Shown here: positions 1 through 28,057 of the stretch, piece after piece
Layout: every line of letters starts with the position of its first letter
How positions within the stretch are numbered: the first letter of the stretch is position 1
From: a virus
Virus record (IMG/VR): IMGVR_UViG_3300025274_001348
Coordinates: 1 to 64,000 of that record
Length of the DNA stretch: 64,000 nucleotides
Direction: 5' to 3' (one strand)
Notes under the pieces: model-generated
What the model saw: only the letters and a program-made list of their open reading frames with translations
What the model was told of the DNA's origin: nothing
The model's database searches: none
Program-made: the position numbers and the translations under genes

Positions 1-84
1 GACGGAGCCAACGGCTACGAAAACCATCAGGGCGACGGCCCAAGTGGATACGACTACTACAGCGATACGCGGCGTTGGTGTTGA
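1..84 (+). CDS. 3' end of a protein truncated by the window start (…DGPSGYDYYSDTRRWC*)
   Basis: Frame 1 open to TGA at 82-84, which lies inside a TTGACA -35 box as for other genes here; tail resembles the YYD…W ends of the acidic family. Confidence 0.4.
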   Translation, partial: DGANGYENHQGDGPSGYDYYSDTRRWC

Positions 85-110
85 CAAACCAGCGACGTAG
101 CTGGTACAAT
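81..110 (+). promoter_or_regulatory. sigma70-type promoter, class B (TTGACA-18-TACAAT)
   Basis: ttgacaaaccagcgacgtagctggtacaat. Confidence 0.7.
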
Positions 111-143
111 ACACGCTCACAAGAACAGAACAGAGAGAGACTC

Positions 144-539
144 ATGAAGATCATTGCAACACACACTGCCAGCAACGCCAACAAGACAACCACGACTATG
201 TGGAAGTCCAACGGTGGGCACTCTTGGTACATCGGCGTGCTAGGGACATCAACCAACAAGATCTGGCACGTCGGGAGTGAGCGATACATCCGGGGGATCT
301 GGAACCGCGAGTATAGCATTTTCGGTGGCCAGTGCAGTGTTGACCGTCCCGGTGACGACCCGGTTGAAGACTTCGAACTGTCCGAGATCCCCGAGGACGG
401 GGTGACATCGGTGGATCTGTTCGACAGCAAGGGCCGCAAGCTGTTCAGCTTCTCGGTTTCGACCAATGGCGTGGCCTACCAAGTGTTACAGGCTGGCGAG
501 GACGCTGGCCTGTTTACTACAACTGAAGACGAGGTATAG
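144..539 (+). CDS. hypothetical phage protein
   Basis: ATG at 144 downstream of the promoter with an AG-rich leader. Confidence 0.7.
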   Translation: MKIIATHTASNANKTTTTMWKSNGGHSWYIGVLGTSTNKIWHVGSERYIRGIWNREYSIFGGQCSVDRPGDDPVEDFELSEIPEDGVTSVDLFDSKGRKLFSFSVSTNGVAYQVLQAGEDAGLFTTTEDEV

Positions 540-544
540 AGACC

Positions 545-631
545 ATGTGGATCATCTACTCAATTCTGGCACTGGTCTGGCTGTTGACGCTGATGGACAT
601 ATTCGTACCCGGATGGGATAGGGACAGATGA
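545..631 (+). CDS. single-TM micropeptide (MWIIYSILALVWLLTLMDIFVPGWDRDR)
   Basis: Hand translation; hydrophobic core; ATGA-coupled to next ORF. Confidence 0.5.
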   Translation: MWIIYSILALVWLLTLMDIFVPGWDRDR

Positions 632-738
632 ACATGTTTGGCAAAGTGTGCGACTGGGCGTTTATCACAATGTGGCTGGCGTGGATGCTGGGTGCTTTGG
701 TTGTGATGACATGGGCAGGGATCGGCGCACTGAGATAA
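628..738 (+). CDS. single-TM micropeptide (MNMFGKVCDWAFITMWLAWMLGALVVMTWAGIGALR)
   Basis: Hand translation; hydrophobic; overlaps previous stop. Confidence 0.55.
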   Translation: MNMFGKVCDWAFITMWLAWMLGALVVMTWAGIGALR

Positions 739-772
739 TCCGAGAAAGTTTCGGAATTCCTCAAGATTGGGC

Positions 773-848
773 TTGACACAGGCAGGCGGTTAAGGTAGAA
801 CCAGCAGCCTTGTGCGCCTTCGTAGTATCAGGCGTACTAGGCTGCTTG
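773..848 (+). repeat. module-boundary element copy 0: TTGACA-17-TAGAAC then hairpin AGCAGCCT.GTGCGCCT/AGGCGTAC.AGGCTGCT
   Basis: GGTAGAAC at 794 followed by a long stem-loop; divergent member of the repeat family. Confidence 0.55.
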
Positions 849-876
849 AGGACAACAGGACGAGAGAAGGGCTACA

Positions 877-945
877 ATGACCATCATCACCATCATCACC
901 ATCGCGCTGGCCGGGCTGCTGGTTCTCGACTTGGTCGATGGCTAG
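877..945 (+). CDS. hydrophobic micropeptide (MTIITIITIALAGLLVLDLVDG)
   Basis: Hand translation; purine-rich leader upstream. Confidence 0.45.
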   Translation: MTIITIITIALAGLLVLDLVDG

Positions 946-948
946 GGC

Positions 949-977
949 TTGACAGCCAGCGAGTCAGCGGGTACAAT
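949..977 (+). promoter_or_regulatory. class B promoter TTGACA-17-TACAAT
   Basis: Consensus match. Confidence 0.75.
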
Positions 978-984
978 ACAGACA

Positions 985-1048
985 TACGGGTGACAAGCTC
1001 CCCAAGTTCCGGGGCCGACCCAACACCACTAGCCTTGAAAGAGCGAAC
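985..1048 (+). promoter_or_regulatory. structured 5' leader, copy 1
   Basis: GGGT/ACCC, CCCC/GGGG and GAAA-loop stems; paralogous to 3050-3112. Confidence 0.55.
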
Positions 1049-1465
1049 ATGATCTTCGATGAAACGCGCGACAACCTGACCGACACCGAGGCCCAGAGCA
1101 TCGAAGCCGATGCCCACGCGGACACCCGCGAAGCCGAGGACACGCGGTGCAGCGAGCGCCGGGTGGCTGACGCTTGGTGGGCGGGCTTCAACCGCGCGAA
1201 GGCGAAGACCGCCGAGCAGGATGCCGCCGAGCAGGATGCCGCCATCGGTGCGGATTGGGCCGCTGCCGGTTACCCCGGCGACGGTGTCGATGACACCGGG
1301 GATGATCCCACCGATCCCGAGCATGACGAGGTCGGTGACGCGGACACCGACTACGACATCGAATTCGATGACGAGGACGACGGTCAGCCCACCGAGTACG
1401 AAGAGTGGCAGGACTACTTCGGTGGGGATGAGTACTACGACCACAGCGAGAACGGGTGTTGGTGA
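1049..1465 (+). CDS. hyper-acidic protein, paralog 1 (C-terminal DDGQPTEYEEWQDY motif); possible DNA mimic
   Basis: 138 aa, very D/E-rich; homologous to 3113-3430 and 5871-6098. Confidence 0.8.
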   Translation: MIFDETRDNLTDTEAQSIEADAHADTREAEDTRCSERRVADAWWAGFNRAKAKTAEQDAAEQDAAIGADWAAAGYPGDGVDDTGDDPTDPEHDEVGDADTDYDIEFDDEDDGQPTEYEEWQDYFGGDEYYDHSENGCW

Positions 1466-1545
1466 TGAAACAGGCAGCGGTCCAAACGCTGAAGATGATC
1501 GGCTGGGGCTTGGCAGTATTCGCCATGCTAGCCGCCACGCTCTAG
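1465..1545 (+). CDS. single-TM micropeptide (MKQAAVQTLKMIGWGLAVFAMLAATL)
   Basis: TGATG coupling to upstream gene; hydrophobic. Confidence 0.55.
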   Translation: MKQAAVQTLKMIGWGLAVFAMLAATL

Positions 1546-1555
1546 GCGGGGTTCG

Positions 1556-1722
1556 GGTAAAACGCGCCGCGTGGGTGTCTCCCGCCATCCACGCCGCTCC
1601 GCGTCAAGGGTAATCTGGGATTTAGCGTGATTTTTTAGTAATTGAGACTCGATCTCAATAGGCTAATCTGAGGAGATAGGGTGGACACTGGGCTTGATTT
1701 ATGCCGATAAGTATAGTATAAT
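1556..1722 (+). repeat. module-boundary element copy 1: GGTAAAAC-hairpin-GTCAAGGGTAAT, operator 1641-1659, class A promoter 1694-1722
   Basis: 9-bp stem GCGTGGGTG/CATCCACGC; ATTGAGA-N5-TCTCAAT; TTGATT-17-TATAAT with GCCGATAA. Confidence 0.85.
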
Positions 1723-1758
1723 GGGAACATACAACAGAGAACAAACGAAAGAGCAAAC

Positions 1759-1989
1759 ATGAGTTGGACAACTGCAACCAGAATTAGAAACGAAAAAATT
1801 CAACGGGCCGTCGAGTTGGCACAACGGGCCAATATCACCGACGTTGACAAGGCGAGAGCAATCAAGGACAAGTACGTTGCACTGCTCAACGAAGACCCCA
1901 CCAGCGAAAAGAATCAACGACTTTACAACTGGTCACAACAGGTTCTTATCGGGGCGAGAACGTTGGCCGGTGAGAGAATCTGGATTTGA
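1759..1989 (+). CDS. hypothetical phage protein
   Basis: 76 aa ORF directly after the promoter. Confidence 0.7.
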   Translation: MSWTTATRIRNEKIQRAVELAQRANITDVDKARAIKDKYVALLNEDPTSEKNQRLYNWSQQVLIGARTLAGERIWI

Positions 1990-1992
1990 AGC

Positions 1993-2021
1993 TTGACAAG
2001 CCGGGTTCATTCTGGTACAAT
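1993..2021 (+). promoter_or_regulatory. class B promoter TTGACA-17-TACAAT
   Basis: Consensus; followed by an ORF-free structured region. Confidence 0.75.
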
Positions 2022-2027
2022 GGACAC

Positions 2028-2577
2028 AACGAACAACGGGGCTACTGGAACTCACAGGCAACGCTGATAAGACGCCGTGAGATAGGGTTAAGAGCCACTG
2101 CAAGCCTAACACACAAAACATACTCTGGAGAAGTTTCGACAACTGATAACCCCTTGCGAGGGTAAGCCCACTAAGAACCGGGGCGCCACTAAAGTTCTCG
2201 GTGACGTAGGGGAAGCTGGTTAGCTTCTAATCGCAAGTGCAGTTGTTACAGGGCGCAACTCCCTGTCAGAGTGCCACACAATCCTGAGTAGTACCCCACG
2301 CTCGGTTGGCCGTTACAGCGGCAAGGGACTAGTAAGCCTAGTAGAAGCCTGTAAGCTTTGAACGGATGCTAGTACCATGGGGATCTTACAACGGACAGGA
2401 ATGGATTACGGGGTTGACCGACAAACTGGTCGCAGGGTTCAATTACCTGCCCTGTCCTTTGACACCACCCTAACAGAAGGGGACCGCGAATGAAGCTATA
2501 TTGAAACAGCACTAGCAAGATGGGCGTCTATCGTCCACAAGCCCCTGTCGGAAAACCAGCGACGGGGGCTTTTTTTA
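2028..2577 (+). ncRNA. candidate ~550-nt structured RNA with tRNA-like domains (2121-2276, 2393-2458)
   Basis: No credible ORF between promoter and terminator; many stems separated by A/C-rich linkers. Confidence 0.65.
2541..2577 (+). terminator. intrinsic terminator
   Basis: GCCCCTGTCG/CGACGGGGGC followed by a T-tract. Confidence 0.8.
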
Positions 2578-2612
2578 TTCCGAGGAAATTCTGGAATTAT
2601 TCAAGATTGGGG

Positions 2613-2801
2613 TTGACAGAGGGGCCGAGATTAGGTAAAACTCAGCGGCGAGGTGGTCTTCGCCCATCCGAGCCGCTTGGCGTCAAGGGTAATATGGCAG
2701 TTTGTGTGATTTTTTTCTAATTGAGACTGAGTGTCAATAAGGAAAAGTGAGGAGATAGGGTGGCGATTGGGCTTGTATTTTGTCGATAATAGTAGTATAA
2801 T
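2613..2801 (+). repeat. module-boundary element copy 2 (TTGACA-17-TAAAAC, hairpin, operator 2720-2738, class A promoter 2773-2801)
   Basis: GGTAAAAC at 2634; AGCGGC..GGTGG/CCATC..GCCGCT; GTCAAGGGTAAT. Confidence 0.85.
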
Positions 2802-2808
2802 GGGAGAC

Positions 2809-3009
2809 ATGAAAACGCAACACACATACAAGCCGATGGAATTCGCTCAGTACTTCGATACGCATGGCGTGCATCACGCCGTGACTGTCCTGTCCGTCTT
2901 GCATGACGGGAAGGCTGTGAAGATCCACTACTACACGGACATCGAGTTGACCGACGTGGTGGTCAAGTGGGTTTTGGCGAAATCCCTGATTCCCATGATT
3001 GGGGCTTGA
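2809..3009 (+). CDS. hypothetical protein, probably leaderless
   Basis: ATG 7 nt after TATAAT; stop inside the next -35 box. Confidence 0.7.
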   Translation: MKTQHTYKPMEFAQYFDTHGVHHAVTVLSVLHDGKAVKIHYYTDIELTDVVVKWVLAKSLIPMIGA

Positions 3010-3034
3010 CAACCAACGCCACGCTTGGTACAAT
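3006..3034 (+). promoter_or_regulatory. class B promoter
   Basis: TTGACA-17-TACAAT. Confidence 0.75.
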
Positions 3035-3049
3035 ACGAGCATACAAACA

Positions 3050-3112
3050 CACGGGTGCAAAGCTCCTCAAGATCCGAGGCCGACCCAACCACTAGCCTTG
3101 AAAGGGCAAAAC
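3050..3112 (+). promoter_or_regulatory. structured 5' leader, copy 2
   Basis: CCTC/GAGG replaces CCCC/GGGG of copy 1 (compensatory change). Confidence 0.55.
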
Positions 3113-3430
3113 ATGACGTTTGACGAATCGCGCGACAACCTGCTGGACATCGAAGCGGCTTCCATCGAGGCCGACGCCCACGCGGAAACCCGCGAAGCCG
3201 ACGACAATCGGCCCATGGAACGCCGGGTAGCCGACGCTTGGTGGGCAACCCGCAACGCGGAAGCCGACGCTCCCGATGACGTGGACCATGACGCGGATGA
3301 GAACCACCCGATGGGCGGGGACGACGACGAACCCGAGGAGGATGACGGCCAGCCCAGCGAGTACGAGGAGTGGCAGGATTACATGGGCGGGGATGAGTAC
3401 TACGACCACGGCGAAAACGGGGAGTGGTAG
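3113..3430 (+). CDS. hyper-acidic protein, paralog 2
   Basis: MTFDESRDNL…DDGQPSEYEEWQDYMGGDEYYDH. Confidence 0.8.
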   Translation: MTFDESRDNLLDIEAASIEADAHAETREADDNRPMERRVADAWWATRNAEADAPDDVDHDADENHPMGGDDDEPEEDDGQPSEYEEWQDYMGGDEYYDHGENGEW

Positions 3431-3432
3431 GC

Positions 3433-3504
3433 ATGGGATGGGCTTTCACGATCTTCTGGTTCCTGATGTTCGGCTTGATCTTTCTGGACATCCACGACGG
3501 ATAA
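3433..3504 (+). CDS. single-TM micropeptide (MGWAFTIFWFLMFGLIFLDIHDG)
   Basis: Hand translation; GGAG upstream. Confidence 0.55.
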   Translation: MGWAFTIFWFLMFGLIFLDIHDG

Positions 3505-3517
3505 CACGAACCCTTTC

Positions 3518-3564
3518 CACTCCGTCGCGGTGAGTGATGACACCGTGGCGGGGTGTTTTTTTTT
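3518..3564 (+). terminator. intrinsic terminator
   Basis: CACTCCGTCGCGGTG/CACCGTGGCGGGGTG plus T9. Confidence 0.8.
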
Positions 3565-3584
3565 GAGAAAATTCCAGATTGGGC

Positions 3585-3772
3585 TTGACATGGGGGCCGG
3601 GATCAGGTAAAACGCGCCGCGCGGATGTCCTGCCCCATCCGCGCTGCTCGGAGTCAAGGGTAATTTGGGATTCAGCGTGATTTTTTAGGAATTGAGATCC
3701 AGTCTCAATAGTGGAATCTGAGTAGATAAGGTGGCGGTTGGGGTTGATTTATGCCGATAAATATAGTATAAT
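3585..3772 (+). repeat. module-boundary element copy 3 (TTGACA-17-TAAAAC, hairpin, operator 3691-3709, class A promoter 3744-3772)
   Basis: Perfect stem GCGCGGATG/CATCCGCGC covarying with copy 1. Confidence 0.85.
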
Positions 3773-3779
3773 GGGAGAC

Positions 3780-4022
3780 ATGAAAGACACAACAGCGAAA
3801 CAAGTTTGGACAGGCCGCGACAAAGACGGCAACGCTTTCCGGCTCAACGCCCCGGTGAACGCTGGGAGTGAATGGGTGTTCAGCGAATCGGCTAGGCTGC
3901 TGGCCTTGCTGGGTTGGGCGAAGGTTTCCGTCGTAATGAAGGGCGACCACATTGTCCTGCTCAACTCGGCGGTCAAGGCAGATCCCGTTTCGCCACCGTT
4001 CCTGAATCCCAACAAGGCTTGA
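3780..4022 (+). CDS. hypothetical protein, probably leaderless
   Basis: ATG 7 nt after TATAAT; stop in next -35. Confidence 0.7.
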   Translation: MKDTTAKQVWTGRDKDGNAFRLNAPVNAGSEWVFSESARLLALLGWAKVSVVMKGDHIVLLNSAVKADPVSPPFLNPNKA

Positions 4023-4047
4023 CAACCCTACCACGATCTGGTACAAT
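4019..4047 (+). promoter_or_regulatory. class B promoter
   Basis: TTGACA-17-TACAAT. Confidence 0.75.
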
Positions 4048-4053
4048 ACACAC

Positions 4054-4290
4054 ATGCAACACAAACCCAAGACCGGCGATCTGTTTGACAGGGGCAATCA
4101 ACACGACTTCGAGTTGGTCCCGTTGAAAGCTCACAGGAAATGGCAGTACATCACGATTCTGCACGGGATTGACGGCAGACCGGCGGATTGTGGTGTGAGA
4201 GTGGACTACCCGCGTTTGACGGGTGGCGGCTTTGGTTTCAATGGTGAGATCAAGCAACGACGGAAGATCTGGAAAGTGAAAGGGACGTAG
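4054..4290 (+). CDS. hypothetical protein, probably leaderless
   Basis: ATG 6 nt after TACAAT. Confidence 0.7.
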   Translation: MQHKPKTGDLFDRGNQHDFELVPLKAHRKWQYITILHGIDGRPADCGVRVDYPRLTGGGFGFNGEIKQRRKIWKVKGT

Positions 4291-4292
4291 AG

Positions 4293-4490
4293 ATGGAAGA
4301 ACTGTGGAACGCACAAACGGCAGCGGGGGTCAAGTTTCAATTCTGGATGCCGGAAGGCTCCGACCATGATGCTGCGCTGGACGTAGCGTTGGGACTCAAG
4401 GACAAGATCGATCCCGACTTCAATGACTGGTTGGTCATGGTGACGATGGCGGCGTTGACCGGACACAACGGCTCCCCGATTCTGTCTTGA
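4293..4490 (+). CDS. hypothetical protein
   Basis: 65 aa; stop inside the next -35 (4487-4515 promoter). Confidence 0.65.
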   Translation: MEELWNAQTAAGVKFQFWMPEGSDHDAALDVALGLKDKIDPDFNDWLVMVTMAALTGHNGSPILS

Positions 4491-4545
4491 CAATCGGCGG
4501 CTGGTCTGGTACAATATACGAAACGGTAGCGCGAGAGGGCAAGGA

Positions 4546-4737
4546 ATGGAATTGGTTTACAAGCTGGATGGGGTCGAAGTCTGGTACTGTCACGAGTCTG
4601 ACGACTTCGAGGTGTGGGCGATGGTGTCGAATGGCCCTGACGACTTCCAGTGGGACGTGGTGTTGACAACCGACGACAGCGAATGGGCTGTGATCGTCGC
4701 GGATGAAGTTTGGCTCAAGATGGAGACGATGGTATGA
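4546..4737 (+). CDS. acidic hypothetical protein
   Basis: 63 aa, D/E/W-rich, after a class B promoter. Confidence 0.65.
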   Translation: MELVYKLDGVEVWYCHESDDFEVWAMVSNGPDDFQWDVVLTTDDSEWAVIVADEVWLKMETMV

Positions 4738-5000
4738 TGACGCGAAAACACTTCAAGATGCTGGCCGCTTCTATTGCGAAGCTGACCCTGTTCGACAAGG
4801 ACGCGGGCTACGACATGGCTTGCGAGGTGGCCGACGCTTGTGCGAAGGACAACCCGCGCTTTGACCGGGTCAAGTTCTTCGAGGCTTGCGGGTTTCCCGG
4901 CGGGATGCACTTGCGTCCATTGCCGGTGCAATACGTGAACTGCGTGGTCGATGCTCAGGGTTTCGTTCCCGCGCGGACTAACAAGAAAGGGGAAACATGA
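4734..5000 (+). CDS. hypothetical phage protein (MTRKHFK…DNPRFDRVKF type)
   Basis: ATGA overlap; motif typical of small phage early proteins. Confidence 0.7.
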   Translation: MMTRKHFKMLAASIAKLTLFDKDAGYDMACEVADACAKDNPRFDRVKFFEACGFPGGMHLRPLPVQYVNCVVDAQGFVPARTNKKGET

Positions 5001-5056
5001 TCTGGGAAACCGTGATCCAAGTGGCCGTGATCATCCTAGCGATCATCGCTCACTAA
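4997..5056 (+). CDS. single-TM micropeptide (MIWETVIQVAVIILAIIAH)
   Basis: ATGA-coupled; AAGGGG RBS. Confidence 0.5.
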   Translation: MIWETVIQVAVIILAIIAH

Positions 5057-5080
5057 AAAGATGGGCGTCTATCGCCTATA

Positions 5081-5112
5081 AACCTCGCCCCTATATGCGG
5101 CGGGGTTTTTTT
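5081..5112 (+). terminator. intrinsic terminator
   Basis: AACCTCGCC/GGCGGGGTT plus T-tract. Confidence 0.7.
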
Positions 5113-5167
5113 ATAACTATATATAACGGCGGCGGCGGGATGTATAAGGGTATATAGTGACGGTTTA

Positions 5168-5333
5168 GGTAAAACGCGCCGGGCAGTGGTCTTGCGCCAA
5201 CTGCCCTGCTTCGCGTCAAGGGTAATCTGGGATTTGGTGTGGTTTTTTAGAAATTGAGATCATGTCTCAATAGGGGGAATTGCTGAGATATGGTGGAGAC
5301 TGGGCTTGCATAATGCCGATAATATGTTATAAT
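5168..5333 (+). repeat. module-boundary element copy 4 (hairpin, operator 5253-5271, class A promoter 5306-5333)
   Basis: GGTAAAACGCGCC-GGGCAGT/ACTGCCC-…GTCAAGGGTAATCTGGGATTT. Confidence 0.85.
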
Positions 5334-5369
5334 GGGGGACAGACAACAACAAGTGAAAGGGTTTGAAAG

Positions 5370-5666
5370 ATGACGAAGACAGTTCCAATGGTTTCCAGTG
5401 ATTGCGTGATCGCCGTGATGGACAAGGCGATGAGCGTGGACATGATGCAGTTCGGTGCGGAGACGCTTGAGGAGATGATGAAGGATCAGCCTCAACTGCT
5501 CAAGGTGATTTCCTTCCTGCTCACCGAACTCATCGCCAAGGGCAAGGACGAGGAAACCGCCGCGATTGATGCCGTCCAGACGATGGCCGTGATCGGCGTG
5601 GTGTTCAAGGCAATCAAGACCCAGATCGAAGCCGACGAAATGGAAATGTCGGAAGACTGGTCTTGA
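5370..5666 (+). CDS. hypothetical protein, paralog of 8163-8480
   Basis: Shared IAVM.KA, QP.L and FK.IK.QIEA.EM motifs. Confidence 0.75.
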   Translation: MTKTVPMVSSDCVIAVMDKAMSVDMMQFGAETLEEMMKDQPQLLKVISFLLTELIAKGKDEETAAIDAVQTMAVIGVVFKAIKTQIEADEMEMSEDWS

Positions 5667-5697
5667 CAATCAACCCCCCGTCTGGTACAATTGACAC

Positions 5698-5874
5698 ATG
5701 AAACACATCGAACTCAGCATCCCCTGTCGGACAACGGCCAGCTTTCGCCAGCCGCAACAGCAGCCCGTCAAGGACACCCCGGAGAAACGGGAAGCCCGGA
5801 TTCGCCTGTACGCTTGGCGAGCCGAAAACAACCTCGACATTTTCACTGGATTTCCGAAAAGGACAACCCCATGA
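5698..5874 (+). CDS. 58-aa hypothetical protein, probably leaderless (MKHIELSIPC…NNLDIFTGFPKRTTP)
   Basis: Below ORF-track cutoff; ATG 6 nt after TACAAT of promoter 5663-5691; ATGA-coupled to next gene. Confidence 0.6.
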   Translation: MKHIELSIPCRTTASFRQPQQQPVKDTPEKREARIRLYAWRAENNLDIFTGFPKRTTP

Positions 5875-6098
5875 CGTTTGAAGAAGCCTTCGAGAACGAC
5901 CCCCAAGCCCGCGCCGAATTCGAGGAGTACCTCGACGAGATGGCCGAGGACCACGTCCACGTTGCGGTGAGTCTCCACGACAGGGACGAGGAGTGGGATG
6001 CGGAGAACGACGGCCAGCCCACGGAGTACGAGGAGTGGCAAGACTTCATGGGTGGCGACGACTGGGATCAAGGCCAGTACGACGATCTTGGTTACTAG
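5871..6098 (+). CDS. hyper-acidic protein, paralog 3
   Basis: NDGQPTEYEEWQDFMGGDDWD motif. Confidence 0.75.
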   Translation: MTFEEAFENDPQARAEFEEYLDEMAEDHVHVAVSLHDRDEEWDAENDGQPTEYEEWQDFMGGDDWDQGQYDDLGY

Positions 6099-6100
6099 AA

Positions 6101-6179
6101 TACGGGTCGAGGTGGTGTTGGTTGTCTCCGTTCTAGAGCGGACAGTACGCCAACGTAATGCAAACCACACACCCCCGTA
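6101..6179 (+). ncRNA. rod-like hairpin upstream of tRNA-Asp
   Basis: TACGGG/CCCGTA, GTGGT/ACCAC, TGTTGG/CCAACG, TCCGTTC/GAGCGGA nested. Confidence 0.35.
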
Positions 6180-6184
6180 GATCC

Positions 6185-6257
6185 GGGGACGTAACTCAAC
6201 AGGCAGAGTGCCGGATTGTCTATCCGGTGGTTGCGGGTTCAAATCCCGCCGTCCTCG
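6185..6257 (+). tRNA. tRNA-Asp(GTC)
   Basis: GGGGACG/CGTCCTC acceptor, CCGGA-TTGTCTA-TCCGG anticodon arm, GCGGG-TTCAAAT-CCCGC T arm; no encoded CCA. Confidence 0.92.
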
Positions 6258-6347
6258 CTTTATATAGCCGCTGCTTCTCGCCCTGTTTTATATACTTATA
6301 TAACTCATCGGGGCCGGGGGTGGCGGTTGTTTTATAGACCCGGATCA

Positions 6348-6494
6348 GGTGAAACGCGACGGCGCTGTGTCGCTCGACAACCGCGCCGCTGGGCGGCTTG
6401 GGGACTAGCAAGTGAAAATGAGTCAGGAAAACTTTGGGATTCTCGGAAATAGGATCAAGATTGGGGTTGACTTTGGTCGATAATATACTATACT
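6348..6494 (+). repeat. module-boundary element copy 5 (GGTGAAAC-hairpin; class A promoter 6467-6494)
   Basis: GGCGC..TGTCG/CGACA..GCGCC; TTGACT-16-TATACT with GTCGATAA. Confidence 0.75.
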
Positions 6495-6523
6495 GGAGGA
6501 GTAAGTCAGTGAGAGGGCAAGAC

Positions 6524-6730
6524 ATGAAACGCAAGACGAAGAAGATGAATCGCGGCACAATCGAGTTCGGTGCTAACTGCGTCACGATCACGATTGAGAG
6601 CGAGCCATGGAAGGTTGGCAGGATTCATTCCGTCAACAAGGCTGGCGCTGGCAAGCACAAGGACAGGCGAACCAAGCGGAACCGCACACGAGCAAACCAG
6701 AACCACAACGCAATCAGGGAATCCATGTAA
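6524..6730 (+). CDS. basic hypothetical protein
   Basis: K/R-rich 68 aa; GAGAGGG RBS. Confidence 0.7.
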   Translation: MKRKTKKMNRGTIEFGANCVTITIESEPWKVGRIHSVNKAGAGKHKDRRTKRNRTRANQNHNAIRESM

Positions 6731-6731
6731 A

Positions 6732-6830
6732 ATGGTAACTGACCTCTTGACTTGGACGAACATCTGTGGTATAATTGTGGCTGTGGGATTCATTTCGGTT
6801 TTGGCAGACAAACTTGGTTGGTGGGAATAG
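6732..6830 (+). CDS. single-TM micropeptide (MVTDLLTWTNICGIIVAVGFISVLADKLGWWE)
   Basis: Hydrophobic; contains an internal TTGACT-17-TATAAT promoter (6747-6775). Confidence 0.5.
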   Translation: MVTDLLTWTNICGIIVAVGFISVLADKLGWWE

Positions 6831-6834
6831 GGAG

Positions 6835-7317
6835 ATGACGATGAGCGACAAGGCTATGCGGATTACTGACAACAAGGGATTCCAACTGGATCTGCCTAAC
6901 GGCGTGACGGTTTCCGTCCAGTGGGGTCCGGGCAACTACTGCGACAGCGACGTGTCGAATGCCAAGTGGGATGCCCCGAAAAAGGCGATTGACGGTGACG
7001 AGCATTGGGGTTCCAACACCGCCGAGTGTGCCGCCTACGTTACTGGTAGCAATCTGTCGTGGGTTGCCGTGCCGGGATACACTGGGCCTCACGGTTGCGA
7101 CGACGAGGACGTGTTCTACGATGACGTGGTTGGACACCTTGACGTTCAGGGCGTTCTGGACTTCATCAATCTGGCATCGCAGGTTGCTGCGGAACCGAAC
7201 CCGAACAGCATCGGAAACAAGATGCTGGGCTGGCTCGAAAAGGAAGATCCTGTGCCTAGCGATCAGCATCCGTTCCCACTCCCCGGACAGAAGGAGCTTG
7301 ATTTCGATGACGCTTGA
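6835..7317 (+). CDS. hypothetical phage protein (GF.L..PNG.TVSVQWG.GNYC motif)
   Basis: Motif recognised from phage hypothetical proteins. Confidence 0.75.
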   Translation: MTMSDKAMRITDNKGFQLDLPNGVTVSVQWGPGNYCDSDVSNAKWDAPKKAIDGDEHWGSNTAECAAYVTGSNLSWVAVPGYTGPHGCDDEDVFYDDVVGHLDVQGVLDFINLASQVAAEPNPNSIGNKMLGWLEKEDPVPSDQHPFPLPGQKELDFDDA

Positions 7318-7516
7318 CCAATTGTGGAGAATCGCTCTGGAGCATTTTCCAGCGTGTCACATCACGGAAGACATGGACGGGGAAATCGTGATCGCCACCG
7401 GGCTGATAATGGAAGGTCCACCGTTGGGGATGGACGGCTTGACGGTTGCGAACATTCCGGCGAAACAACAACAACACGTTCAACTCAGGGAGATGACTGG
7501 TGAAGACCTTACGTAA
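7307..7516 (+). CDS. hypothetical protein
   Basis: AAGGAG RBS; overlaps upstream stop. Confidence 0.6.
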   Translation: MTLDQLWRIALEHFPACHITEDMDGEIVIATGLIMEGPPLGMDGLTVANIPAKQQQHVQLREMTGEDLT

Positions 7517-7655
7517 AGGCGAGAAGTTCAAGCGGCTGAAGAATTCCACCAAGACCGACTTGGGCGTTATCAAGAAACTGGTCAAGGACGGGTGGACGTT
7601 CTGCGACAAGACAACGTGGAGGGCGCTCAGAGATGGCGATGCTGCGAAAGATTAA
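7500..7655 (+). CDS. 51-aa basic hypothetical protein (MKTLRKGEKF…GWTFCDKTTW…)
   Basis: GTG start with GGAG RBS; hand translation. Confidence 0.55.
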   Translation: MKTLRKGEKFKRLKNSTKTDLGVIKKLVKDGWTFCDKTTWRALRDGDAAKD

Positions 7656-7722
7656 TCGGGACACTTTGGTGACGTTTGCGTTCATCGGCTTCTGGACCTT
7701 TATCATCGTGGCAACACGGTGA
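7639..7722 (+). CDS. single-TM micropeptide (MLRKINRDTLVTFAFIGFWTFIIVATR)
   Basis: Hand translation; ends 8 nt before element copy 6. Confidence 0.5.
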   Translation: MLRKINRDTLVTFAFIGFWTFIIVATR

Positions 7723-7729
7723 GGGTTCA

Positions 7730-7885
7730 GGTGAAACGCTGCGGCGGGTGTGTCGCTGCACATCCCGCCAGCTTCGGCGCAAGGGTAATCTGGGATTTTG
7801 AGCGATTTTTTCGAAAGTTTTTTCTGGCAATCTGACGGGATTTACTGGAGTGCGACCTTGACTAATGCCGATAATATACTATAAT
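7730..7885 (+). repeat. module-boundary element copy 6 (class A promoter 7858-7885)
   Basis: GGTGAAAC; GGCGGG.TGTG/CACA.CCCGCC; CAAGGGTAATCTGGGATTT. Confidence 0.8.
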
Positions 7886-7913
7886 GGGGGGAACAATACA
7901 CGAGGGTGAGAGC

Positions 7914-8099
7914 ATGACAGAGAAAGAGTTGGACAGGCTGCTGGCAGAAGACGGATACGGGGTGCGTGAGGTTTGCGGTGAACGGGCAGGCGAAACCGTT
8001 TGGGAGTTGTGGGAGTTGATGGATTCTAGCACTGGCTGGATCGTCGGCTACTTCGACACCGCCGAAGACGTTTGCGATTTTGTCGGGATTTATGCTTGA
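7914..8099 (+). CDS. acidic hypothetical protein
   Basis: 61 aa; stop in next -35 (8096-8123 promoter). Confidence 0.65.
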   Translation: MTEKELDRLLAEDGYGVREVCGERAGETVWELWELMDSSTGWIVGYFDTAEDVCDFVGIYA

Positions 8100-8162
8100 C
8101 AATGGTTGATAGTCTGCTACAATGGATAGCAGACAAGGACACAAGAACGAGAGGGTTTGAAA

Positions 8163-8480
8163 ATGGCGACGATGAACGGGATGCCGCGAGTGACGAAGGA
8201 CGCAACGATTGCCGTGATGCACAAGGCAACGACAATCGACATGGCTGAATTCGGGGTTCAAGTCCTCGATGAACTGGACGAGGAGCAACCGGCCTTGTGT
8301 CAGATGCTCACTCACATGATCATGGACCTCGCCTGTCCCGACGAGATGCCCGAGGAATTGAAGCAGTCGAATGCTCTGATCATGACCGTCATCGCCGGAT
8401 GTCTGTTCAAGTCGATCAAGGCACAGATTGAAGCGGAAGAAATGGCAAGTTTGTTTAGTGAAGAGGAGACTGTTGAATGA
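8163..8480 (+). CDS. hypothetical protein, paralog of 5370-5666
   Basis: Visible alignment. Confidence 0.75.
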   Translation: MATMNGMPRVTKDATIAVMHKATTIDMAEFGVQVLDELDEEQPALCQMLTHMIMDLACPDEMPEELKQSNALIMTVIAGCLFKSIKAQIEAEEMASLFSEEETVE

Positions 8481-8653
8481 CACACGTTGGAATTGGTGAT
8501 CGAGTGCTGTTTGACTACCACGGCAAGGCTCGGAGTGGTAGCATCGAGAAGATCGGGAATGGTCCCGCTGGCGTCTACGTCATCATCGCACACGGCGATG
8601 GCTCGCACAAGACGTTCTCACAACCCAAAATCAGTAACCTGCGAAAGGTGTAA
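8477..8653 (+). CDS. 58-aa SH3/WYL-like small protein, paralog of 39733-39954
   Basis: FDYHGKARSG…GNGPAG…KTFSQPKISNL; hand translation. Confidence 0.55.
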   Translation: MTHVGIGDRVLFDYHGKARSGSIEKIGNGPAGVYVIIAHGDGSHKTFSQPKISNLRKV

Positions 8654-8655
8654 AC

Positions 8656-8832
8656 ATGAAGACGACGGTTGCGACATTCGAGTTGGAAAAGGAAACCAAG
8701 AACACGATTCGCTACAGCGAAACGCCGGATGAAGGCGTGGCCCCAGTGGTCAACACGATCTACATCCAGAAGCACGTTCTCGGCAAGACCGCTCCACAGA
8801 ACATCAAGGTGACAATGGAGGAATCTAAATAA
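8656..8832 (+). CDS. 58-aa hypothetical protein (MKTTVATFELEKETKNTIRY…IYIQK…)
   Basis: AAGGTG RBS; hand translation. Confidence 0.65.
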   Translation: MKTTVATFELEKETKNTIRYSETPDEGVAPVVNTIYIQKHVLGKTAPQNIKVTMEESK

Positions 8833-9147
8833 GGCGGGGATTGCAACCCCGTCTAGGGTGGTGACTGAACAATCCCCGGTTATGGGGGGATAAGGTGCGC
8901 GCTGCTGAGTTCCGATAGCCGAATGGTCGAGGAGTTCAGGTAGACGGCAGTCATACAGAACTACCATATCTGTGAGCTTGCGGGCAAAAGTGAATCCCGC
9001 CCACCCGTTATACATACAGCGCTGGCTAAGAACCGGGGCGCCACTATAATACTCGGTGACGCCAGCGCTATCAAACAGTGACTTGGAGTTTCGCCCTTTC
9101 CTCAGTCGCTGGCCCCCGTTCCGGTTCGCCGGTGCGGGGGTTTTTTT
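8832..9147 (+). ncRNA. candidate structured RNA: cloverleaf-like domain 8856-9007, conserved motif hairpin 9018-9069, terminator 9112-9147
   Basis: ORF-free; multiple perfect stems; shares a 36-nt motif with 2171-2206. Confidence 0.65.
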
Positions 9148-9161
9148 ATTGGCGGGGATCG

Positions 9162-9306
9162 GGTGAAACGCGGCGGCGGGTTGTCGCTGGGCAACAACGC
9201 CGCTCGGCGTCAAGAGGAAAGTGGAGGTTTAGGCGATTTTGTGGAAAGTTTTTCTAGGGAATATATTCAAGTTGGGGGTTGACAATAGCCGATAATACTC
9301 TATAAT
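9162..9306 (+). repeat. module-boundary element copy 7 (class A promoter 9279-9306)
   Basis: GGTGAAAC; GCGGCG..GTTGTC/GGCAAC..CGCCGC; GTCAAG; TTGACA-16-TATAAT with GCCGATAA. Confidence 0.8.
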
Positions 9307-9336
9307 GGGGGAGTAACACACACACGAGGGCAAGCA

Positions 9337-10119
9337 ATGTTGAAGTGGTCGAAAGCAAACGCGAAAACGGAACGGTTGAACGAGAGTTGTTGGGCAATTG
9401 CCAAGCACCTTGACGATGGGCGGAAGGTCTACAGTCTCGATCTGTTGTCGGGCTACTCGTGTCCGTTTGCAAAGGCGTGTCTCTCGAAAGCGGTTGTCGG
9501 TGAAAATGGCAAGCGGACAATCAAGGACGGTCCCCACAATGAGTTTCGTTGTTTCTCGGCATCGCAAGAGGTGCAGTACACCAACGTGTACAATCTCCGC
9601 AAACACAATTACGACACCTTGAAGGAAAACCAAGACGACTGGCCGTTGATGTATCAGGAACTGTGGAAGTCGATTCCCCCGGATGCCGGGATTGTTCGGA
9701 TTCATGTTGCAGGGGATTTCTTCAACGAGAATTATCTCCGGGCTTGGATTGAACTGGCTCAAACAACTCCCGACGTGTTGTTCTACGCCTACACCAAAAG
9801 CCTGAAGTATTGGGATGCTCTCAAGAGTGAAGTCCCCGAGAATCTGGTGCTGACGGCGTCGTATGGTGGGCGTGACGACTGGATGATTGATCATGGTGGA
9901 TTCCGATTCGCCAAGGTGGTATTCTCAGAAGCGGAAGCGGAAGAACTCGACTTGATTATCGACCACGATGATTCCCACGCTGCTAATCCAACGTGGCGGG
10001 ATGAGAGTTTCGCACTGTTGATTCACGGGACACAACCGGCGGGATCGGAAGCGGCGACGGCTCTGCGAGAATTGAAGGGTAAAGGTTCTTACTCTAGAAA
10101 ACAAAAGGTGACGGGATGA
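9337..10119 (+). CDS. Gp88-like phage protein (Cys-containing, radical-SAM-related fold)
   Basis: L.SGYSCP.A..C, VRIHVAGDFF and FYAYTKS motifs. Confidence 0.7.
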   Translation: MLKWSKANAKTERLNESCWAIAKHLDDGRKVYSLDLLSGYSCPFAKACLSKAVVGENGKRTIKDGPHNEFRCFSASQEVQYTNVYNLRKHNYDTLKENQDDWPLMYQELWKSIPPDAGIVRIHVAGDFFNENYLRAWIELAQTTPDVLFYAYTKSLKYWDALKSEVPENLVLTASYGGRDDWMIDHGGFRFAKVVFSEAEAEELDLIIDHDDSHAANPTWRDESFALLIHGTQPAGSEAATALRELKGKGSYSRKQKVTG

Positions 10120-10325
10120 TTGAGAGAACGACGATTGTGGCGGTGGATTGCATTCAGTGCAAGGAAACCCAACATATCACAACAAAAACCGAGGATCTCG
10201 ATTCTTGGGAGAATGGCGAACTGATTCAGAACGCCATGCCGTACTTGACGGCTGATGAGCGGGAAGTCCTCATTAGCGGGATTTGCGGGACTTGTTTCGA
10301 CAATATGTTCGCGGGTGACGAATGA
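10116..10325 (+). CDS. small Zn-binding protein (CxxC…CxxC)
   Basis: CIQC, IQNAMPYL, LISGICGTC. Confidence 0.7.
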   Translation: MIERTTIVAVDCIQCKETQHITTKTEDLDSWENGELIQNAMPYLTADEREVLISGICGTCFDNMFAGDE

Positions 10326-10765
10326 TCGACTATACTAAACGGGTTTACGTCTATTGGAATCTCCACCGGAAACTGTGGAGTGTGAGACAATCCGGGCTTA
10401 TCGTAGACCACGCCCACCTGTTGTCGTTGCGGGATTGTAAGTTCCTCGTCGGCAAGGCTGGACAGGCTAGGGTTCGACGCGAGGGAAAGAAAAACGTCCA
10501 CGCTGGCGTGAGCGGCTACCTGCTGGAAGATCCGTGTAGCGTTGACCGAATGGTGTGGAATGGGTTCTACGATAAACAAGTGTGGGTCATGTACAACCCC
10601 TATAAGCACGACACGTTTGTAGAGCGGACTGGCGTGTGTGACGACCAGTATCCGATCCCAGTATATAGAGCCGACTTCGTTGCAATGTACAAAGACAATG
10701 ACCGGGACGCCCCGACAGTAATGGCTCTAGAGCCGGAAGGTGAGCAATGCGTGACATCTTGCTAG
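10322..10765 (+). CDS. conserved phage hypothetical protein
   Basis: VYWNLH…WSVR…KKNVHA…YNPYK motifs. Confidence 0.75.
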   Translation: MIDYTKRVYVYWNLHRKLWSVRQSGLIVDHAHLLSLRDCKFLVGKAGQARVRREGKKNVHAGVSGYLLEDPCSVDRMVWNGFYDKQVWVMYNPYKHDTFVERTGVCDDQYPIPVYRADFVAMYKDNDRDAPTVMALEPEGEQCVTSC

Positions 10766-10845
10766 TGGCAGCGGCGTGGGCTTATGTAATTCTTTACGCC
10801 TTCGAATTGTTTATGCGGTACTGCCCATTGACAGACATTGGGTAA
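10747..10845 (+). CDS. single-TM micropeptide (MRDILLVAAAWAYVILYAFELFMRYCPLTDIG)
   Basis: Its TAA stop lies within GGTAAGAC of element copy 8. Confidence 0.5.
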   Translation: MRDILLVAAAWAYVILYAFELFMRYCPLTDIG

Positions 10846-11013
10846 GACAGGGCGTCGTTGTGGCTCACGCAACCCACGCCGCTGGAGGCGATCTAGGTGT
10901 GCGAGCAAGTAAAAGTCAAGTACAAAATCGGAATCTGGGCGATTTTAAAAAAGATTCTTTTTTGACCAATCGGGGCTAAAGATGCTTGACATATTGTGTC
11001 GATAAACTATAAT
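10841..11013 (+). repeat. module-boundary element copy 8 (class A promoter 10986-11013)
   Basis: GGTAAGAC; GGCGT..GTTGTG/CGCAAC..ACGCC; TTGACA-16-TATAAT with GTCGATAA. Confidence 0.65.
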
Positions 11014-11083
11014 GGAGACATACAGTTGAGTTGGTGAGTGTTTCACCGACAATGAGTTTTGACCGCAGACGGAGACAAGAGAC

Positions 11084-11410
11084 ATGAGTGAGAAGAAGCA
11101 AAGAGCAGAGGCGATTTCGGCCACGGCATTCGTGGAAGCATACGTTAAGGTTCACCAGAACGGCGGCACGATTGCCGACGTTGCCGACGAGTTGGGCCGG
11201 TCTGTTGAGCAGACCCGGAGCAAGAAGAATGCTCTGACTCCCGCATTCGCTGAACGCGGGATCAAGCTGCCGAAGTTGGTTCGGCAAGGTCGCAACGGCA
11301 CGTCCTACGACGAGGCGGCTCAGGTCGCTGGTGACTACCTCGCAAGTCTGATGGCGGGGAGTGACGAGGCCGAGTCCGACGAGTCGGAGTCGGAATTCGC
11401 TTCGGAGTAA
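11084..11410 (+). CDS. putative HTH DNA-binding protein with acidic tail
   Basis: TIADVADELGRS HTH-like segment; GGAG RBS; terminator at 11426-11462. Confidence 0.65.
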   Translation: MSEKKQRAEAISATAFVEAYVKVHQNGGTIADVADELGRSVEQTRSKKNALTPAFAERGIKLPKLVRQGRNGTSYDEAAQVAGDYLASLMAGSDEAESDESESEFASE

Positions 11411-11528
11411 TCATCCGTCGCGGAGGTGGGGTCGCCCTTTATTAGGGCGGCCCTGCTTTTTTCTTGACTTGTCCTGCTACTTATGTTACTATGTAGAAGG
11501 ACAGAAAACTAACTTTTGGAGTGATGAG

Positions 11529-12785: not shown

Positions 12786-12795
12786 GGAGGTCAAC

Positions 12796-12885
12796 ATGGA
12801 ACGGTATGTCGGATACGGTATGTTCGCCTTTGGAGTGCTACTGTTTTGGATAGGTTTCAAGAATAGGTGGCGAGAAGAAGACTAG
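12796..12885 (+). CDS. single-TM micropeptide (MERYVGYGMFAFGVLLFWIGFKNRWREED)
   Basis: Perfect AAGGAGG RBS. Confidence 0.7.
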   Translation: MERYVGYGMFAFGVLLFWIGFKNRWREED

Positions 12886-12908
12886 AACCTACTAACTAGC
12901 AACGCGCG

Positions 12909-12943
12909 ACCCGCTCCGGTGCAAGCCGGGGCGGGTTTTTTTT
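12909..12943 (+). terminator. intrinsic terminator
   Basis: ACCCGCTCCGG-TGCAAG-CCGGGGCGGGT plus T-tract. Confidence 0.85.
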
Positions 12944-12977
12944 GTGAAAAAATCGGGGATTGGACTTGACAAGATCG

Positions 12978-13030
12978 GGTAAAACGGGAGGGCAACGGTG
13001 TAGCACGCTAACCGGGCCGCTGCGCCCAAG
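12978..13030 (+). repeat. module-boundary element copy 9 (last; no downstream class A promoter)
   Basis: GATCGGGTAAAAC; CGGT.TAGC/GCTA.ACCG stem; CAAG. Confidence 0.6.
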
Positions 13031-26518: not shown

Positions 26519-26590
26519 GCCCCCGTAGTTCAATGGTTAGAACGCCGTTCTTATAAAGCGGTAACGATAGTTCGACTCTATCCGGGGGTA
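26519..26590 (+). tRNA. tRNA-Ile(TAT)
   Basis: GCCCCCG/CGGGGGT acceptor, GTTC/GAAC D stem, CCGTT-CTTATAA-AGCGG anticodon arm, GATAG-TTCGACT-CTATC T arm. Confidence 0.9.
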
Positions 26591-26651
26591 CTTAATCTGT
26601 TGGAAAGATGTCTCAGTAAAAACACCACGATTAAGATTAGCAGGATTTAAA

Positions 26652-28038: not shown

Positions 28039-28057
28039 TTTTACATTGGGAGAAAGT

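Follow-up and report, generated by a model that had tools for sequence, protein, structure and literature searches.

A predicted family of tRNA/tmRNA-shaped RNA modules, supported by covariation, in a non-coding cassette of an uncultured marine phage

Phages carry transfer RNAs (tRNAs), a few transfer-messenger RNAs (tmRNAs) and a handful of stable RNAs, the role of which has been unclear since the T4 era. Large phage-associated RNAs, GOLLD and ROOL, lie at times near tRNAs, and the tRNA-like domain of tmRNA is laid out without a D stem and with a long helix that returns directly to the T arm, its alanine identity residing in a G-U at the third acceptor pair. In the present study, we analysed positions 2028-2577 of a 64,000-nucleotide (nt) stretch of viral DNA (hereafter, the window), which represents the first 64 kilobases (kb) of the 84.5-kb IMG/VR virus record IMGVR_UViG_3300025274_001348, estimated to be 56% complete. 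This region is a cassette devoid of a credible open reading frame (ORF), and it holds at 2119-2276 an element, module B, with the outline of a tRNA or of the tRNA-like part of a tmRNA. On RNAs C and D of phage T4 (species 1 and 2; rnaC and rnaD), one paper states that "their biological roles are unknown" (PMC3014915), and another speaks of "RNAs of yet unknown functions" (PMC9697503). The manA RNA is presented as marine and as occurring in T4-like phages (PMC2864571).

In module B we recognise a new family of small phage RNAs that mimic tRNA, predicted from sequence comparison, supported by covariation and previously undescribed, which sits within a modular non-coding cassette and has no matching family in Rfam 15. 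Full-text searches of an open-access library brought up no account of this family either, which is not proof that it is unpublished. In the window copy (Table 1), a short A/C-rich leader with a final U leads into the acceptor stem, the unpaired D-region stands in place of a D arm, and a conserved asymmetric internal loop separates the 8-bp (base-pair) stem from the inner helix. A branched insert of ~94 nt replaces the anticodon arm loop, and, with 0 nt for a variable loop, the 8-bp stem returns straight into the T-arm-like hairpin, whose stem and the acceptor make up 12 stacked pairs (6 + 6). The RNA corresponds to the plus strand, because G-U pairs present in several rows of the alignment would be A-C on the other strand.

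Table 1. Predicted features of the cassette and of its surroundings, in window positions.
Feature	Position	Strand	Description
Sigma-70-type promoter	1993-2021	+	TTGACA 1993-1998, 17-nt spacer with TG, TACAAT 2016-2021; 11 of 12 consensus positions
Module A (5' leader module)	2028-2118	+	GGCT 2040-2043 and AGCC 2103-2106 frame a variable hairpin, CTCAC 2051-2055/GTGAG 2077-2081
Module B (tRNA/tmRNA-like RNA)	2119-2276	+	155-nt RNA; 192.7 bits with covariance model R1
Module B, acceptor stem	2122-2127/2267-2272	+	6 bp
Module B, unpaired D-region	2128-2137	+	10 nt
Module B, 8-bp stem	2138-2145/2240-2247	+	same length in all subfamilies
Module B, inner helix	2153-2159/2231-2237	+	closes the branched insert
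Module B, 36-nt hairpin module	2171-2206	+	ACCGGG 2177-2182/CTCGGT 2197-2202; GA on both strands, TAA bulge
Module B, insert hairpin	2212-2227	+	
Module B, T-arm-like hairpin	2248-2266	+	6-bp stem, 7-nt loop, no spacer before it
Module B, 3' end	2273; 2274-2276	+	G, then CCA; encoded
Module C (orphan stretch)	2281-2392	+	hairpins GCCGT/GCGGC 2311-2324 and a long ACTAGTA/TGCTAGT
tRNA-shaped element	2393-2457	+	7-bp acceptor 2393-2399/2451-2457 stacked on a 5-bp stem with 9-nt T-like loop (2432-2450)
Module E (weakly structured tail)	2458-2540	+	fold z -0.25
Repeat D15	2510-2543; 5051-5084		34 nt with small hairpin; 82% identity; each before a different terminator
Intrinsic terminator	2541-2576	+	10-bp G+C-rich stem 2541-2550/2560-2569, 9-nt loop, seven T
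Acidic small protein paralogues (three)	1049-1465; 3113-3430; 5871-6098		
tRNA-Asp	6185-6258		ARAGORN; no encoded CCA
manA-like RNA	8832-9010		47 bits, E 7e-11; below the gathering score of 55.2
GP88-family gene	9337-10119		PF17338, E 6e-37
DUF932-like gene			within the left-arm array
rIIA and metabolic genes			right of the cassette array
tRNA-Ile(TAT)	26519-26591		
Full tmRNA	27704-28041		132.8 bits; tag AEKQFALAA

Members of the family were gathered by pattern and by covariance model; related contigs and loci are cited here by our labels (L004, G002 and so on). A scan of metagenome contigs for two conserved words of 2150-2237, which are weakly present in a second relative too, returned 10 stretches, 9 of them true; the match in L019 was a chance one and was dropped. 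L021 is the same phage, 100% identical over window positions 1500-3200 and extending ~6 kb further left, and the other relatives found by the scan share window 2103/2109-2280 at 88-98% identity. A first model (R1), for which 8 sequences and a structure set by hand were used, recovered all known copies, and the models were run over loci fetched via the acidic protein (30) and via the GP88-like protein (51) of the surrounding array. Diverged copies (B') turned up with R1 in 2 of the 30 acidic-protein loci, another came from the 51 GP88-like loci, and a pattern of the shell (the three helices around the insert) added one further contig with the B' form. The second model (R2), rebuilt from B and B', was searched against 81 sources (969 kb) and yielded 26 matches at E ≤ 1, among which were true tRNAs in L036 (confirmed by ARAGORN) and, judged by eye, in L051 (two), L044, L048 and L058. 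Further forms are a B'' form of ~156 nt with a 7-bp acceptor and an ordinary-looking tRNA T arm (L110, L086, L089, L106, L111), a ~112-nt form with an insert of ~30 nt (L076, L077, L096, L083, L094, L084), a 145-nt form (L057, plus L097 on the same contig) and copies cut by contig ends (L088, L079). The family thus comprises ~29 contigs and six sequence subfamilies of ~112-172 nt, with acceptor stems of 6-7 bp. On the new forms neither ARAGORN (applied to members in 11 related loci) nor Rfam (E ≤ 1) made a call. The module B pattern gave 0 matches in 185,579 prokaryote genomes, so that, at this stringency, neither a host copy nor a prophage copy is indicated.

Covariation is what carries the case. 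Even between the window and the diverged G002-type copy, the helices differ in sequence yet still pair. In the R1 alignment 92.9% of cells over all helices are paired, and 9 pairs changed on both sides against 4.2 ± 1.4 in shuffled alignments (0 of 500 as high) and 1-3 in slid controls. For the shell, in 18 distinct sequences, pairing reaches 97.0% of 369 cells, compared with 67.0 ± 1.8 after shuffling and 40-50% after sliding; double-change cells number 114 versus 37.3 ± 4.6 (a count again reached by 0 of 500 shuffles), with a covariation score of 0.793 versus 0.238 shuffled and 0.08-0.16 slid. Of the 18 rows, 14 retain the terminal GCCA, the exceptions being L020, L057, L076 and L096/L094. 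Most of the unpaired cells in the R1 alignment and in a further alignment of the module come from the G002-type rows. The pairing that we first gave to the outer helix of the G002-type copy is probably mistaken, the 3' strand of that helix pairing better with a downstream hairpin; by eye, a 7-bp acceptor adjoining the T arm makes this copy fit the family.

The 36-nt hairpin within the insert behaves as a unit of its own. A second copy (9026-9061, 92% identity) lies in another outer helix beside the manA-like RNA, where R1 detects it unaided (9026-9057, 20.7 bits). L017 keeps the base of the stem with a changed tip, and G002-type copies have another hairpin at that place; the exact 21-nt word of the motif gave 0 matches in IMG/VR. 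A kink-turn reading, modelled on the 3-nt bulge and tandem G-A of that motif, was set aside, since an extra C on the opposite strand misfits its simple form.

Comparison with relatives also divides the 550 nt into module A, module B, an orphan stretch, a tRNA-shaped element, a tail and the terminator, and the whole is, as far as sequence comparison predicts, a string of independent RNA modules of 65-160 nt each rather than one large RNA. In all five relatives with sequence past module B (L017, L018, L023, L024, L025), similarity is lost at 2279-2281. What follows there is different each time: a tRNA-shaped element and then a further non-coding module in L017 and L018, that non-coding module without the tRNA-shaped element in L025, and unrelated sequence in L024, while in L023 module B is flanked on either side by a copy of the usual leader hairpin and runs directly into the leader of an acidic-protein gene. 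Upstream of module B, L017 and L018 have module A with another inner hairpin, and L023 and L025 have a leader hairpin instead. The related IMG/VR contig L004 has the upstream gene as a homologue (protein 86% identical) together with the same promoter, and what comes next there is an ordinary protein gene. The initial annotation had considered a new large non-coding RNA of the GOLLD or ROOL kind; this has to be given up, because the relatives share module B or modules A and B alone and differ wholly past 2279-2281, so that the 550 nt do not form a single conserved unit. GOLLD and ROOL are each one large conserved fold, in contrast to the window's chain of modules, and neither matches here in Rfam at E ≤ 10. 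A/C-rich linkers join the modules.

The limits of the presumed transcript were confirmed on both sides. The promoter, with its 11 of 12 consensus matches and its TG, starts directly past the stop codon of a small ORF (1759-1989), and L017, L018 and L025 retain its hexamers with varying spacers. The terminator is present in both the minimum free energy (MFE) and the centroid folds; a consensus scan missed it because its loop of 9 nt exceeds the scan's loop limit of 8. Between the two, six-frame translation and G+C content (GC) by codon position bear out the absence of a credible ORF: the longest stop-free stretch is 45 amino acids (aa) on the plus and 66 aa on the minus strand, each frame has 6-12 stops, and GC is flat over codon positions (0.49-0.58) compared with third-position values of 0.57-0.80 in neighbouring genes. 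A hidden or decayed gene was accordingly rejected. A conserved micro-ORF among the 35-38 aa ORFs at 2366-2493 also appears unlikely, as these lack a ribosome-binding site and lie in DNA without relatives. Two RNA runs were sampled for words of window 1700-3100: run X20, an oligo-dT library poor for bacterial small RNA, contained 6% of them, on the flanking genes of relatives, and run X24 contained 0.

Known-family searches of the region were negative throughout. Rfam 15, as the initial annotation had called for, returned nothing within 2028-2577, neither at the gathering score over the whole window nor at E ≤ 10 over 1700-3200, the sole match in the latter being a chance MIR815 at 2712-2747. 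ARAGORN found no tRNA or tmRNA in 2028-2577 in its default, ps80 and mitochondrial modes, and at ps70 made a single odd call (2376-2457). The region had further been described as packed with stems. Four of those named (CTCAC/GTGAG, GAAGCT/AGCTTC, GCCGT/GCGGC and ACTAG/CTAGT) are in the sequence and in the folds, and TAGGGTT/AAGCCTA pairs in part and not over its full length; by energy, however, the stems do not rise above chance, the fold z of the whole region being -1.48 (8 of 100 shuffles equally good) and that of its parts -1.60 (A), -1.66 (B), -0.06 (2281-2395), -2.26 (2390-2462) and -0.25 (2459-2542). Stem richness alone is therefore not beyond chance, and it is comparison, rather than folding energy, that raises the region above it in these predictions.

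The region had been credited with two tRNA-like domains; the shapes are there, at 2119-2276 and 2393-2457, while recognition as tRNA by ARAGORN or Rfam is not. For the second of them, 2393-2457, MFE and centroid folds agree (z = -2.26; 4 of 200 shuffles equally good), and it has a middle hairpin with an oversized loop, no D stem and no CCA. The Rfam tRNA model gave nothing there at E ≤ 10, ARAGORN gave only its odd ps70 call, and R2 found no match. By eye, a positional analogue of different sequence follows module B in L017 and L018. Assignment of 2393-2457 as a second tRNA-shaped element is a prediction from a single sequence.

On balance, and with moderate confidence, we read 2028-2577 as an ORF-less cassette that would be transcribed as a precursor of tRNA-mimic RNA modules in the left arm of the phage. 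Of the two readings put forward at the outset, a polycistronic precursor of tRNA mimics is the better supported by sequence: the covariation, shell and GCCA of module B fit it, and its weaker half is the second element, known in one sequence. Transcription would probably begin at the 1993-2021 promoter and end at the 2541-2576 terminator, early in infection, and read-through from a promoter at 1694-1722 may add to it, as no terminator lies between. Bacterial RNase P substrates carry a U before the 5' end and a G-CCA after the acceptor, and module B fits such a substrate, with a U before its predicted 5' end and G-CCA after its acceptor stem. Host RNase P would then cut at the acceptor 5' sides (near 2121/2122 and 2392/2393), and 3' tRNA-processing enzymes would trim at GCCA, yielding stable small RNAs; by analogy, the pieces would be released as they are in tRNA clusters and for T4 RNAs C and D. 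A released mimic cannot decode, since it lacks an anticodon loop. The conserved parts of module B are those read by factors that bind the acceptor, T arm and CCA end, and we speculate that the mimic would occupy a host or defence factor reading these parts, or act in ribosome rescue. Related phages exchange the modules as units by recombination, in the way in which they also exchange other members of this array, namely its small protein genes, tRNA genes and manA-like RNAs.

Several points weigh against this reading. Folding energies lie near those of shuffled controls. Nearly half of the unit (2281-2540) has, save for 2393-2457, neither relatives nor a folding signal, and outside 2393-2457 it could be filler or decayed sequence. 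Both-side changes in 17 of the 21 shell pairs are modestly above the shuffles (14.5 ± 1.3; 14 of 500 reach 17). Furthermore, the alignments were fitted to the structure of the model, so that the counts lean towards structure, and many rows are close relatives, so that cells are not independent and counts are inflated; these caveats notwithstanding, the helices differ between subfamilies at most positions and still pair. The G002-type copy is without CCA and is poorly aligned by the models. At E ≤ 0.01, R2 matches 17 of 80 related loci (the window and the L036 tRNA excluded), and from this sporadic occurrence the family is to be regarded as an accessory and not a core function. No contig of the two RNA runs covers 2029-2639, a result uninformative either way since contigs cannot show absence. 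Finally, TROVE/Ro60, a CCA-adding enzyme and SmpB were not found in four partial records, which are 18-79% complete and do not show absence.

A rival idea is that the cassette is evolutionary debris, that is, decayed tRNA genes and gene remnants in a hyper-recombining accessory region, which may or may not be transcribed, with no function of its own. The stretches 2281-2392 and 2458-2540, which lack relatives and do not surpass shuffled sequence in folding, are in keeping with it, as are the failure of 2393-2457 in every tRNA test, the patchwork nature of an array in which everything is exchanged, and the sporadic distribution of the family. Module B nevertheless does not look like debris: it is kept across six subfamilies in which nearly every shell pair changes while 97% of cells pair, the length of the 8-bp stem, the internal loop and the GCCA are kept, and the module boundaries are sharp and reused. 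Pairing, stem length, internal loop and GCCA together point to purifying selection on structure, not to decay, and we consider debris an improbable account of the cassette.

Alternatively, module B and its neighbours could be cis-regulatory leaders, of the riboswitch type or as protein-binding 5' untranslated regions (5' UTRs), and the cassette a leader that has lost its gene. L023 is laid out in just this manner, with module B between two leader hairpins directly upstream of the acidic-protein gene, and L052 has a module A variant in the 5' UTR of its acidic-protein gene. L023 is, however, the only one of the five close relatives with a gene directly downstream of module B. Module B gives way to non-coding modules and a terminator with no ORF in the window, in L017 and in L025; after the B' copy of L038, L052 and L062 come hairpins or a terminator, and beyond these a fresh promoter. 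A conserved acceptor stem and T arm with GCCA encoded at the 3' edge are typical of a processed RNA end and not of an expression platform, and no alternative terminator/anti-terminator pairing was seen. A regulatory leader is therefore an improbable explanation, and the precursor of tRNA mimics remains the reading that we prefer.

The remaining modules of the cassette have companions elsewhere to different degrees. Module A ends in an A/C-rich linker on its 3' side, and L017, L018, L024 and L025 carry variants of it whose inner hairpin differs; its compensatory changes were judged by eye alone. To the left of the window, on the minus strand of L021 (4385-4325), a module A copy comes immediately after a hydrophobic micro-ORF of 19 codons, and with its 3' end this copy overlaps the -35 box of the next promoter. 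Another module, F (L038 14480-14550; L052 10265-10335; L062 85-150; L008, minus strand, ~2060-1990), immediately precedes the B'-type tRNA mimic and is present in the G002 relative as well. It consists of an outer GCCGC/GCGGC and an inner CCCC/GGGG stem around the conserved word GTGAAAGCCTAAC, which is also the 3' end of the window's module A; module F had no match in Rfam. Module C was seen only in identical copies of the same phage (L021 and contigs of DNA runs). Four of the 10 copies of TAGTA in window 1-12000 (at 2289, 2330, 2339 and 2370) lie in it, over a span of 82 nt; two of them pair together in its long hairpin, and the TAGTA words of 2289-2374 may be a protein-binding repeat. For 2281-2540, blastn with word size 8 against the fetched related loci (~640 kb) retrieved only the repeat flanking the terminator, D15, which may be a 3' processing or stabilising signal.

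The phage itself is uncultured and marine, with a genome of about 150 kb; its closest cultured phages by RIIA are roseobacter phages of ~150 kb at ~30% identity, and blastn of 1990-2580 against 50,697 cultured-phage records gave no match. It is widespread and common in marine metagenomes: 19 DNA runs contain at least half of the sampled words from window 1700-3100, and the word search gave 20 rows with such words overall, from 18 studies. The left arm of the window is an array of short cassettes with very small genes, in which G+C is 52-56% (bases 1-12,000) versus 36-45% in the remainder. The break in composition between the array (1-13000) and 13000-64000 is sharp; mis-assembly is unlikely, as related contigs join the same array to the same low-GC genes. 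In window 1-8000, 25 promoter-like sites were counted, compared with 4.7 ± 2.5 in shuffles, nine of them matching 11 of 12 consensus positions, and a TTGACA/TACAAT-type promoter stands at no fewer than nine cassettes. A conserved upstream element of ~180 nt is found in 4-7 repeats within the left arm. The three acidic paralogues, which had no match in Pfam or PHROG, share the C-terminal motif DDGQP(S/T)EYEEWQD(Y/F)(M/F)GGD, found in 30 IMG/VR loci, and they could be DNA mimics.

Further observations concern the neighbours of the tRNA-mimic cassettes. One such cassette lies directly upstream of the GP88-family gene in L038, L052, L062, L110, L086, L089, L106 and L111. The window's GP88-family protein has a Lys/Gly-rich tail, residues 245-257 of which give a sub-threshold match to the ribosome-rescue factor ArfA (PF03889; 18.4 bits, the cut-off being 25.5), and this ArfA-like tail is invariant in four homologues. 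In L057, a ~350-nt non-coding stretch past the acidic-protein gene of a related phage contains an 83-nt RNA (10459-10541) that matches Rfam tmRNA positions 1-374 (38.9 bits, E 3.7e-12; gathering score 47). It is the tRNA-like domain alone, skipping the middle of tmRNA, and by eye has a G-U at the third acceptor pair. At window 8832-9150, the manA-like RNA, the 36-nt hairpin in a perfect outer helix (~9017-9069) and a terminator (~9108-9150) form a cassette end that follows a small ORF and does not lie in a 5' UTR. Matches to manA occur also in L010, L022, L057 and L062, some adjoining tRNA genes.

As to function, the setting in an array of consensus promoters, acidic small proteins and a DUF932 gene suggests, faintly, host takeover or counter-defence. 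The full tmRNA of the phage, the 83-nt RNA of L057 and the ArfA-like tail suggest, just as faintly, a link to ribosome rescue. A long-shot conjecture is that the module B family is a phage weapon against the host's tRNA-end or ribosome-rescue machinery, either as a toxin sponge or as a tag-less mini-tmRNA or SmpB decoy. The weapon would be an early, processed, CCA-ended mimic of the half of tRNA that comprises acceptor and T arm; in the toxin version, it would sequester a toxin of a defence system by which tRNA 3' ends are modified or read. The mini-tmRNA or decoy version would be in keeping with the phage's own tmRNA, with the 83-nt RNA of L057 and, as a further hint, with the ArfA-like tail of a GP88-like protein whose gene follows one of these cassettes in several relatives. 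Were the weapon conjecture true, the swappable inserts would be specificity modules, exchanged like the neighbouring small anti-host genes. By contrast, a reduced tmRNA proper, charged and entering stalled ribosomes with SmpB under a short tag or none, is highly improbable: although the shell is laid out like the tRNA-like domain and first helix of tmRNA (no D stem, 0-1 nt from long stem to T arm, encoded CCA), and although a full tmRNA in the phage (27704-28041), the L057 match without the whole middle (10459-10541), the weak ArfA-like tail of the neighbouring GP88-like protein and, by eye, a TAG at the tip of one insert hairpin in most subfamilies all favour it, no family member is called by the Rfam tmRNA model or ARAGORN, no frame or tag is conserved between subfamilies (the ~112-nt form having an insert of ~30 nt), the third-position acceptor G-U is absent in the window copy, other subfamilies having a G-U at the second pair, and an SmpB gene was not found in the four partial records.

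The cassette adds to the phage repertoire a defined, alignable family of tRNA/tmRNA-shaped RNAs, and the combination of a covarying shell with a variable insert makes this family amenable to structure probing and binding assays. Additionally, it offers a view of how composite non-coding RNAs get assembled, with RNA domains shuffled as units at A/C-rich linkers like the small accessory genes around them. According to one preprint, phage tRNAs counter a retron defence (bioRxiv 10.1101/2023.03.15.532788); in view of this, and of the early-takeover look of the array, an anticodon-less tRNA mimic is a concrete candidate for an RNA factor of counter-defence or translation hijack.

Among described systems, module B comes closest to T4 RNAs C and D, which are of the same general kind, to the tRNA-like domain of tmRNA and to tRNA itself. 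Like tRNA (RF00005), it has a 12-bp stack of acceptor and T arm, a 7-nt T-like loop and a G-CCA end, both helices covary, and a U precedes the predicted 5' end in most copies. The likeness is confined to the upper half of tRNA: module B differs in having no D stem, anticodon loop or variable loop and in being twice as long, and it is recognised as tRNA neither by RF00005 (nothing at E ≤ 10) nor by ARAGORN. Conversely, R1 and R2 align true tRNAs from end to end by deleting the insert (T4 tRNA-Arg, 10.8 bits; L036 tRNA-Arg, 26.7 bits). With tmRNA (RF00023) it shares an acceptor on the T arm, an unpaired D-region, a long helix returning to the T arm and an encoded CCA; the shell without a D stem and with the long helix returning directly to the T arm is found, covarying, in 18 of 18 rows. 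It departs from tmRNA in size (~112-172 nt versus roughly 300-400 nt), in showing no reading frame common to the subfamilies, the inserts of which range from ~30 to ~100 nt, and in its acceptor, which has no G-U in the window copy and a G-U at the second pair (5-270) in 7 of 18 rows. The tmRNA models (RF00023 and its clan, and ARAGORN) called only 27704-28041 and neither module B nor its members in relatives. Having no tag frame, no third-pair G-U and no model match, module B belongs to neither the tRNA nor the tmRNA family.

The manA RNA motif (RF01745) resembles the cassette in its place in the same phage array, in being structured and ORF-less or gene-distal, and in neighbouring a 36-nt hairpin; in sequence and fold it is unrelated to 2028-2577, where no manA match was found. 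T4 RNAs C and D are likewise small (119-139 nt), lie among tRNA genes and are, by annotation, co-transcribed, and the module B family, too, occurs in cassettes with tRNA genes (tRNA-Asp, 6185-6258). By eye, rnaC ends in a T-arm-like hairpin and rnaD in CCA. Homology to them was nevertheless rejected, as R1, run over the T4 tRNA region with filters off, gave rnaC 5.2 bits (E 2.4), its best match there being tRNA-Arg. Module B differs from the T4 RNAs by its branched insert on an 8-bp stem and by its setting, which is an early-type promoter array and not a tRNA cluster, and within which it is swapped between phages as a module.

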